Source: Escherichia phage Antha. From it: a stretch of 64,000 nucleotides of DNA. Shown here piece by piece: positions 27,589 to 28,578 of the stretch (position 1 is the stretch's first letter; every line of letters begins with the position of its first letter). The notes under the pieces are model-generated. The model ran no database searches, had not been told where the DNA came from, and worked only from the letters and a program-made list of their open reading frames with translations. The stretch lies in sequence record PP925826.1; one strand, 5' to 3'. The translations under genes were made by a program, and so were the position numbers.

Positions 27589-28578
27589 TTACACCTCCTT
27601 ATTGTATACTAACTTGCCACCATATTGTGTAATAATTTTTTGAAGATTTTCCAAATCAGAAACACTTACTGTTTCTGTATGACCGTCTTTCAACTCTCTT
27701 GCTGTTAAAATACCAGTTTTTAATTTTTTCTTTATAGCTCTTTCAGCAGCCTTACACTGTTTCACTGTGCTAAAATCATATAAACAAATACGTTCCATAA
27801 AAAACAGATTACGGCTATTTTGAATGTTTAATCGCCTATCACTATCTTTAGCTATACCAAACTTAAGAGCAACTATAATATTATCATCCTTAACAATATT
27901 AATATATAACTGCTGCTGACTATGACCAGCACACATAGGACAACCTCGACCGAGGCTTAATAAATTATGAGCACTCCCTATCTGCTCACCATGCACAAGA
28001 CAAAGATATTTAAACTTACCTATAGAAGAGGGTTTGGTAATCCAATCTACCCAGACATACCCTTTCCCTTCTACTTCCTTTTTTACCCTATAGGTGATCT
28101 GGTCTTCTGTATACCGATAGTTCCCACAACGACACGGAATATACCCTCGTTTAAGGTTATCTCCTTCAGAGTAAAATTTACCATCACAAACACCTGCTTG
28201 AACATATTCATCATGAGAGCAAACAGGACATTCAACCATCCAGATAATATTCCTACATCCTTTACCCCGTGTTCCTGTGTTAGTGAAGATAGTGCCTTCC
28301 TTAAATTCCCCTGTAGAAAAGAAATCTGCAATATGTTGATCGTCGGACATTGTTTGTGACTTCCTTATATTCTTCCTCCTACATTGTGGACAACCGCTAC
28401 CACATTTAAAACTGTTAATACTTGTAGTATCCCATTTATAACCACAATGGCACAACAAATCAAGTTTTGTGTGGACCCCTTTCCATTGTCCCGTCCATCC
28501 TAAGATTTGGATTTGCTTACTCTCTGCTATTGGTATACACTCTTCTTTATATTGTTCCCATGATTTTGGTGCTGCCAT
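27589..28578 (-). CDS. zinc-ribbon repeat protein with C-terminal T5orf172/GIY-YIG-like domain
   Basis: three GxGCPxC repeats; C-terminal LYINIV..KFGIAKDSDRRL resembles T5orf172 motif. Confidence 0.45.
   Translation of the reverse strand: MAAPKSWEQYKEECIPIAESKQIQILGWTGQWKGVHTKLDLLCHCGYKWDTTSINSFKCGSGCPQCRRKNIRKSQTMSDDQHIADFFSTGEFKEGTIFTNTGTRGKGCRNIIWMVECPVCSHDEYVQAGVCDGKFYSEGDNLKRGYIPCRCGNYRYTEDQITYRVKKEVEGKGYVWVDWITKPSSIGKFKYLCLVHGEQIGSAHNLLSLGRGCPMCAGHSQQQLYINIVKDDNIIVALKFGIAKDSDRRLNIQNSRNLFFMERICLYDFSTVKQCKAAERAIKKKLKTGILTARELKDGHTETVSVSDLENLQKIITQYGGKLVYNKEV

Follow-up and report, generated by a model that had tools for sequence, protein, structure and literature searches.

A probable free-standing CapR-T5orf172 homing endonuclease gene downstream of the AAA ATPase gene of Escherichia phage Antha

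A stretch of 64,000 nucleotides from Escherichia phage Antha (sequence record PP925826.1), termed the window, carries on its minus strand at 27589-28578 an open reading frame (ORF) for a protein of 329 amino acids (aa), with an ATG start at 28578 and a TAA stop at 27591-27589. The frame is found in the ORF list exactly as an earlier annotation, made by a model from the letters and their ORFs and here called the sequence-only reading, had given it. That reading also named the product a candidate nuclease or homing endonuclease, a proposal supported by the domains of the protein, the conservation of its motifs, and a pattern of empty sites in related phages. The gene, which lies between an AAA ATPase gene and a NADAR gene, is probably a free-standing homing endonuclease gene (HEG) of the CapR-T5orf172 class. 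The class is already known, and this orthologue group is new to study.

The source phage is a Justusliebigvirus (phi92-like, Stephanstirmvirinae), an E. coli myovirus of ~146 kb. Over the 3.8 kb that surround the gene, DNA identity is 99.4% with phage vB_EcoM_ESCO9 and 95-99% with about 50 further phages. Among large phages of E. coli such a gene is ordinary. Related public records label it either “hypothetical protein” or “endonuclease”, and a correct label for it is the practical gain of the analysis.

The N-terminal portion of the protein is built from zinc modules of a named family. The Pfam CapR homology domain (PF21817; cut-off 24.2 bits) matches the whole protein in three stretches with 89.2 bits (E 2e-25), above the gathering score and well beyond what chance would give; modules 1 and 2 pass singly, and module 3 by itself falls below the cut-off. 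CapR itself is a satellite repressor that binds DNA through four conserved cysteines, sequence-specifically in electrophoretic mobility shift assays, and that is related to the N-terminal domains of T5orf172 proteins of phage ICP1 (PMC8096241). The sequence-only reading had described three GxGCPxC zinc ribbons. It was right about the zinc modules and the three CPxC knuckles, but the modules are CapR homology domains rather than generic zinc ribbons, and the GxGCPxC pattern holds for the outer knuckles, GSGCPQC (aa 60-66) and GRGCPMC (aa 210-216), but fails for VECPVC (aa 115-120) in the middle.

Each of these knuckles has a predicted partner, C43-x-C45 in module 1, C149-x-C151 in module 2, and C193-x-x-H196 in module 3, which would complete three four-ligand zinc sites. 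Module 2 follows the order of CapR, CxxC and then CxC, with VECPVC as its first knuckle and 28 residues between C117-x2-C120 and C149-x-C151. Modules 1 and 3 have the reversed order (C43-x-C45...C63-x2-C66 and C193-x2-H196...C213-x2-C216) and share with module 2, in the full-length structure model, the layout helix-strand-strand-strand-helix. The predicted ligands of all three modules are at least 90% conserved in 38 homologues, with C117 invariant.

The C-terminal portion is a T5orf172 domain, as the sequence-only reading had it, although the match is borderline by sequence. Against the Pfam profile (PF10544; cut-off 20 bits) the whole protein scores 21.5 bits, and the isolated segment aa 216-329 scores 24.3 bits (E 4.5e-5) over profile positions 10-98 of 101. 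Taken singly, 21 of the 38 family members match PF10544 and 6 of the 38 match the related MUG113 in the scan made for this analysis; a precomputed PF10544 call is missing for most homologues. The match to PHROG 681, annotated “endonuclease”, is strong (E 8.8e-68). Because the T5orf172 score was marginal, the fold was tested by a structure model. The full-length model (predicted local distance difference test, pLDDT, 90.3; predicted template modelling score, pTM, 0.50) has flexibly arranged domains and gave nothing significant in Foldseek as a whole, so the domain was modelled alone. AlphaFold2, run on aa 218-329 with a 38-sequence alignment, returned a model with a pLDDT of 94.3 and a pTM of 0.87, in which the segment forms the beta-beta-alpha-beta-alpha core that marks the GIY-YIG fold.

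The residues that count in a GIY-YIG nuclease are placed in the expected secondary-structure elements of this model. Y225 lies in strand 1, K239-F-G241 in strand 2, R249 in helix 1, and E279 in helix 2, and all are invariant in the 38 homologues, down to 31% full-length identity. Judged from the modelled topology, Y225, K239, R249, and E279 are the likely equivalents of I-TevI Y6, Y17, R27, and E75. T5orf172 domains usually have a lysine in place of the tyrosine in the second GIY-YIG motif. The strings that the sequence-only reading quoted from this region are both present, LYINIV at aa 224-229 and KFGIAKDSDRRL at aa 239-250. A family-specific motif, D298-G-x-T-E302-T, is likewise invariant. 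The nuclease domain is under purifying selection: in comparisons with close alleles, its ratio of nonsynonymous to synonymous substitution rates (dN/dS) is 0.15-0.31, against 0.31-0.66 in the DNA-binding part.

The borders of the gene are tight on both sides (Table 1). Upstream, the ATPase stop codon is followed by a GC-rich hairpin and T run, which by their sequence resemble a terminator for the ATPase gene and would mark the left edge of an insertion; the consensus scan made no call for this hairpin. The gene's own ribosome-binding site (RBS) follows, and is kept in the alleles of phages muut and J-01. Downstream, the ATG of the NADAR gene at 27588-27586 abuts the endonuclease stop codon on the same strand, which agrees with the placement directly upstream of NADAR in the sequence-only reading, and the last three endonuclease codons form the NADAR RBS.

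Table 1. Features of the putative endonuclease gene and its immediate neighbors in the window (positions refer to the 64,000-nucleotide stretch)
Feature	Position	Strand	Details and basis
Probable homing endonuclease gene	27589..28578, incl. stop codon	-	329 aa; three CapR zinc modules, then T5orf172 domain; ORF list, Pfam, PHROG 681, full-length model
CapR module 1, aa 14-66	28381..28539	-	Pfam on fragment E 2.1e-11, 44.3 bits; predicted Zn ligands C43, C45, C63, C66
CapR module 2, aa 91-152	28123..28308	-	Pfam on fragment E 2.7e-12, 47.1 bits; predicted Zn ligands C117, C120, C149, C151
CapR module 3, aa 160-217	27928..28101	-	Pfam on fragment E 6.5e-4, 20.3 bits; predicted Zn ligands C193, H196, C213, C216
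T5orf172 / GIY-YIG-fold nuclease domain, aa 218-329	27592..27927	-	Invariant Y225, K239, G241, I242, R249, C275, E279, D298, G299, E302, T303, G320, G321
RBS of the endonuclease gene, GAGGAG	28586..28591	-	7 nt 5' of ATG; read from sequence
GC-rich hairpin and T run, AAAACCCGC-TTCG-GCGGGTTTT	28616..28638	-	After ATPase stop, 5' of endonuclease gene; read from sequence
RBS of the NADAR gene, AAGGAGGTG	27592..27600	-	Within the end of the endonuclease gene; read from sequence
NADAR / YbiA-like gene, downstream neighbor	27037..27588	-	Pfam NADAR 125.5 bits; TIGR02464 109 bits; context, outside element
AAA ATPase gene, upstream neighbor	28653..29780	-	Pfam AAA; PHROG 2376; context, outside element

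Evidence that the gene arrived by insertion comes from the sister genus, Phapecoctavirus. There, a homologue of the endonuclease gene comes after that ATPase gene in phage nieznany (486 aa) and in phiWec179 (337 aa). phiWec190 and phiWec188 have no endonuclease gene at this place, and 45 nt separate their ATPase gene from a 121-aa gene. When these sites are aligned, the insertion of phiWec179 and nieznany occupies precisely the interval between the hairpin of the terminator and the RBS of the next gene. A hairpin analogous to that of the window forms the left border of the Phapecoctavirus insertion, and at the right border the endonuclease frame continues through the pre-existing RBS and start codon of the downstream gene. 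A junction query against 77 Phapecoctavirus-type records found three contiguous (empty) sites, the third of them, in EP57, at 78% identity and therefore classed from its sequence as probably empty. Klebsiella phage phi1_175008 is empty as well, with the ATPase gene followed by a homologue of the 121-aa gene. The sequence-only reading had proposed a search for presence/absence polymorphism, and clean empty sites are what it turned up in phiWec188, phiWec190, probably EP57, and the Klebsiella relative.

The family also occurs away from this site. It is present in 397 phage records by tblastn, and phiWec179 holds a second paralogue of 337 aa at record positions 2002-3015, ~95 kb from the ATPase locus. 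This second copy is inserted on the opposite strand and flanked by a tape-measure-like gene of 651 aa and a structural gene of 235 aa. The window protein is 44% identical to the second copy and 40% identical to the syntenic one, and the two copies of phiWec179 are 34% identical to each other. Within the 64-kb window, no paralogues were found by tblastn or by a custom nuclease-domain hidden Markov model (HMM) run on six-frame ORFs.

Within Justusliebigvirus the gene is far more variable than its surroundings. Across 55 phage records, tblastn gives at least 99% identity for the ATPase protein and 62-100% for the endonuclease protein. In a sliding-window comparison, the divergence is limited to 27900-28580, which codes for the DNA-binding part; identity there is 78-90%, with insertions and deletions of whole modules, as against 95-100% in the nuclease domain and in the flanks on either side. 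The N-terminal CapR module, of which module 1 of the window is the hypervariable type with unequal copy number between alleles, is present once in the window (329 aa), twice in muut (396 aa), and three times in J-01 (467 aa). Homologues in the databases cluster in size at about 325-333, 387-415, and 465-483 aa. The allele junction falls within a repeated “ILG[WY]xGxWKG” motif. That one deletion in the 396-aa allele gave rise to the 329-aa allele was considered and is too simple an account, since the alleles of P0017 and P0018 have a window-type module first and then a different second module. Modules have thus been shuffled as well as lost.

Other patches of variation were seen nearby. At 30700-31300 there is a second mosaic boundary, where the window matches J-01 at 100% identity but KKE7M and muut at 52-71%; in place of the window's gene of 339 bp, KKE7M has one of 552 bp. 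The interval 28600-30700 is 92-100% identical in J-01, KKE7M, and muut, and mostly at least 96% identical. A variable patch at 25500-25900, which holds small ORFs near a switch of coding strand, has 40-74% identity to muut and a gap in J-01.

From zinc and DNA binding through cleavage of a target site to actual homing, the steps that we infer would run as follows. The protein may be arranged as beads on a string, with three independently folded four-ligand zinc modules that likely read a long, asymmetric DNA site. The C-terminal T5orf172 domain would likely cut the DNA nearby, using Y225, K239, R249, and a metal held by E279. During co-infection, the target would be the genome of a related phage without the gene, which the enzyme would cut in or close to the intergenic site 3' of the ATPase gene. 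Recombinational repair from the endonuclease-carrying genome would then copy the gene and flanking markers into the broken genome. In a survey of T5orf172 HEGs, Barth et al. (2023) found CapR, DUF723, or DUF4397 zinc modules, often repeated, in 87%, reported that the repeats recombine and that the genes are located at boundaries of genetic exchange, and held that whether such genes home is not decidable by sequence alone (PMC10448857). Phage Muut, a close relative of the window, is on the genome list of that study. The present locus could serve for a direct test of whether T5orf172 HEGs home.

Several results weigh against the interpretation as a HEG. On the side of the protein, they begin with the marginal, borderline PF10544 score. 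Foldseek with the whole 329-aa model found nothing significant, GIY-YIG proteins appearing at E 0.5-3, and with the nuclease domain its top three proteins reached TM (template modelling) scores of 0.54-0.57 at non-significant E-values (0.4-1). PDB sequence searches with the full-family and nuclease-domain profiles gave chance matches (4lr4, E 1.5; TUP1, E 0.07) and no GIY-YIG protein. An hhalign comparison of the nuclease profile with the I-TevI catalytic domain aligned 13 columns in the expected FG...R register with a probability below 1%, and was not used as evidence. At the locus, the consensus scan found no promoter-like site between the hairpin and the endonuclease ATG. A further objection comes from the population of the gene. 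A synthetic query for an empty junction, in which the start of the NADAR gene was fused to the 3' end of the ATPase gene, was contiguous in none of the 55 Justusliebigvirus records; the site is occupied in every one, and homing therefore cannot currently occur within the genus. The gene is fixed there, and the empty targets sought in its own population are absent. Simple theory expects a fixed selfish HEG to decay. Purifying selection despite fixation leaves room for a domesticated role.

Such a role, in which a former HEG is now kept for the benefit of the phage, is the main rival reading, though an unlikely one. The protein could be a weapon against co-infecting relatives, a satellite, or another parasite, as with ICP1 Odn, or a site-specific repressor, as with CapR or the autorepression of I-TevI, and its DNA-binding array would be undergoing retargeting in an arms race. 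The fixed yet intact gene with its low nuclease dN/dS agrees with this, as do the restriction of divergence to the DNA-binding part and the spread of endonuclease sequences among phages whose ATPase is nearly constant. There is also precedent in the same phage group, in which separate RepA_N-T5orf172 “Odn-like” genes occur in Inny, Muut, and Mt1B1_P17 (PMC10448857). However, hypervariable binding domains and module shuffling are known for ordinary T5orf172 HEGs too (PMC10448857), and the empty sites of the sister genus form the classic pattern of a selfish element. Nor did searches turn up, for the binding domain, a satellite or host counterpart of the kind known for Odn and CapR: 5,426 complete E. 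coli genomes gave no blastn match to the gene, and 185,579 species-representative bacterial and archaeal genomes gave a single 303-bp contig. This weakens a scenario of the Odn or CapR type. The contig (JAPMLR010000203.1, from a Lysobacteraceae assembly) codes for a fragment that matches aa 187-284 at 58% identity, and it probably stems from phage DNA in the sample. A bolder version, which we think quite unlikely, is that after fixation the gene has been maintained as a retargetable weapon and is no longer merely selfish. That gain, loss, and shuffling of CapR modules would shift which competing phage genome or parasite is cut is a conjecture to be held with equal doubt; the N-terminal modules number one, two, or three among phages otherwise 97-100% identical. 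If true, the locus would amount to a zinc-finger nuclease system that is naturally “programmable” and that evolves rapidly in the conflict between phages.

The opposite suspicion is that the gene is an inactive remnant, either a HEG in decay or a DNA-binding zinc-finger protein with a T5orf172 domain that has lost, or never had, the ability to cut DNA. The HMM score barely over the threshold and the many homologues lacking a precomputed PF10544 call would fit, T5orf172 was once suggested to be a DNA-binding domain (cited in PMC8096241), and the family lacks the first-helix His/Tyr of most GIY-YIG enzymes, as noted for Odn (PMC8263062). Odn is nonetheless an active nuclease with that same deviation: it cleaves DNA in vitro, and its E180A mutant is dead (Barth et al. 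2021, PMC8263062). A remnant is very improbable because more than 50 genomes have the ORF intact and at full length, the 38 homologues show no change at the GIY-YIG motif positions, and nuclease dN/dS is well below 1; the confident GIY-YIG fold of the model speaks against it as well. The reading as a HEG, by contrast, brings together the domain identities, the conserved motif, the precise intergenic insertion with empty sites in relatives, the copy at a second locus in one relative, and the gain and loss of modules.

A functional operon with the NADAR gene was also considered and is ruled out. In Phapecoctavirus the endonuclease and NADAR genes are kept apart by two small genes, and genomes without the endonuclease gene still have NADAR; the adjacency in the window is therefore incidental, and the NADAR gene is functionally untied to the endonuclease gene. 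Its labels are inconsistent across records (“GTP cyclohydrolase II”, “YbiA-like N-glycosidase”, “hypothetical”). It matches TIGR02464, the riboflavin-intermediate N-glycosidase model, and weakly the NADAR anti-phage model. On its 3' side, 26550-27000 has a GC content of 22-24% against 35-45% around it and contains no ORF of at least 40 aa; two repeat_regions are annotated in muut at the matching place, and the stretch could be a regulatory or origin-like region.

The upstream ATPase is labeled “FtsH-like protease”, “ATPase or Zn metalloprotease”, or “ATPase” in public records. Pfam covers its AAA core (aa 79-170) alone, leaving ~200 C-terminal residues without a family. The ATPase belongs to PHROG 2376, and jumbo phages have homologues of it. 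An antisense ORF of 130 aa on the plus strand (27967-28359) overlies the endonuclease gene; none of the related records annotates it, and it is most likely spurious. Among the database records, four under the name “Campylobacter phage” (MG065689, MG065656, MG065645, and MG065650; A110a, C3, A145, and B15), of ~146-150 kb and with a Campylobacter jejuni host label, are 93-95% identical to the region, and one “Acinetobacter” and one “Pseudomonas” record closely match Phapecoctavirus. These probably reflect mislabelled hosts or contaminating coliphages.

The closest parallels to the window gene are the HEGs with CapR homology in ICP1 (Gp165, Gp174, Gp121, Gp53, and Gp130), a group covered in PMC8096241 and PMC10448857. 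Both sets are free-standing and intergenic and have the same order of N-terminal CapR repeats and C-terminal T5orf172 domain, and the number of DNA-binding repeats varies here as it does in gp174 of ICP1, by in-frame recombination. The hosts and lineages are unlike, Stephanstirmvirinae of E. coli here and Mohonavirus of Vibrio there, and so are the insertion sites, 3' of an AAA ATPase gene here and beside terminase, ribonucleotide reductase, or capsid genes in ICP1. ORF165 of ICP1_2006_E (Gp165) is 32.5% identical to the window protein over aa 27-258 (E 1e-26). T5 Orf141 (T5.141), which belongs to the T5orf172 family, is 28% identical over aa 148-319, which spans module 3 and the nuclease domain (tblastn E 1e-7). 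Its gene, like that of the window, follows a terminator between unrelated genes, but the protein is shorter (250 aa) with fewer zinc modules. Gp165 and Orf141 were both named putative HEGs with CapR homology by Netter et al. (2021, PMC8096241).

ICP1 Odn (Gp88) shares the nuclease domain family, keeps the catalytic Arg and Glu, and lacks the helix-1 His/Tyr, as here. It is the sole member of the T5orf172 family with cleavage demonstrated in vitro. Its DNA-binding domain is a RepA_N from a satellite, in place of CapR modules, and it serves as a domesticated anti-satellite weapon rather than as a homing element. CapR, the capsid repressor of PLE, a satellite of Vibrio cholerae, is the member on which the zinc-module family was founded, and the window protein has three such modules. 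CapR is a transcriptional repressor without a nuclease domain, and its ligands, CxxC and CxC separated by 24-26 residues, are needed for DNA binding (PMC8096241); two of the three modules here have the reversed knuckle order, C-x(1,2)-[CH] ... C-x-x-C. The alleles of the window gene, with one, two, or three N-terminal modules and a constant nuclease domain and flanks, offer, together with the true empty sites of the sister genus, a compact natural series for learning how CapR modules specify a DNA target.

A further likeness is to the GIY-YIG homing endonucleases of T4, I-TevI and SegA-G, which are modular too, with a catalytic domain tethered to separate DNA-binding modules, a zinc finger being among those of I-TevI. 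Their domains run in the opposite order, with the nuclease at the N-terminus and not, as here, at the C-terminus, and the second motif is KFG here and YIG in the T4 enzymes. The seg genes of T4 are free-standing and intergenic, and spread via double-strand-break repair with co-conversion of flanking markers.

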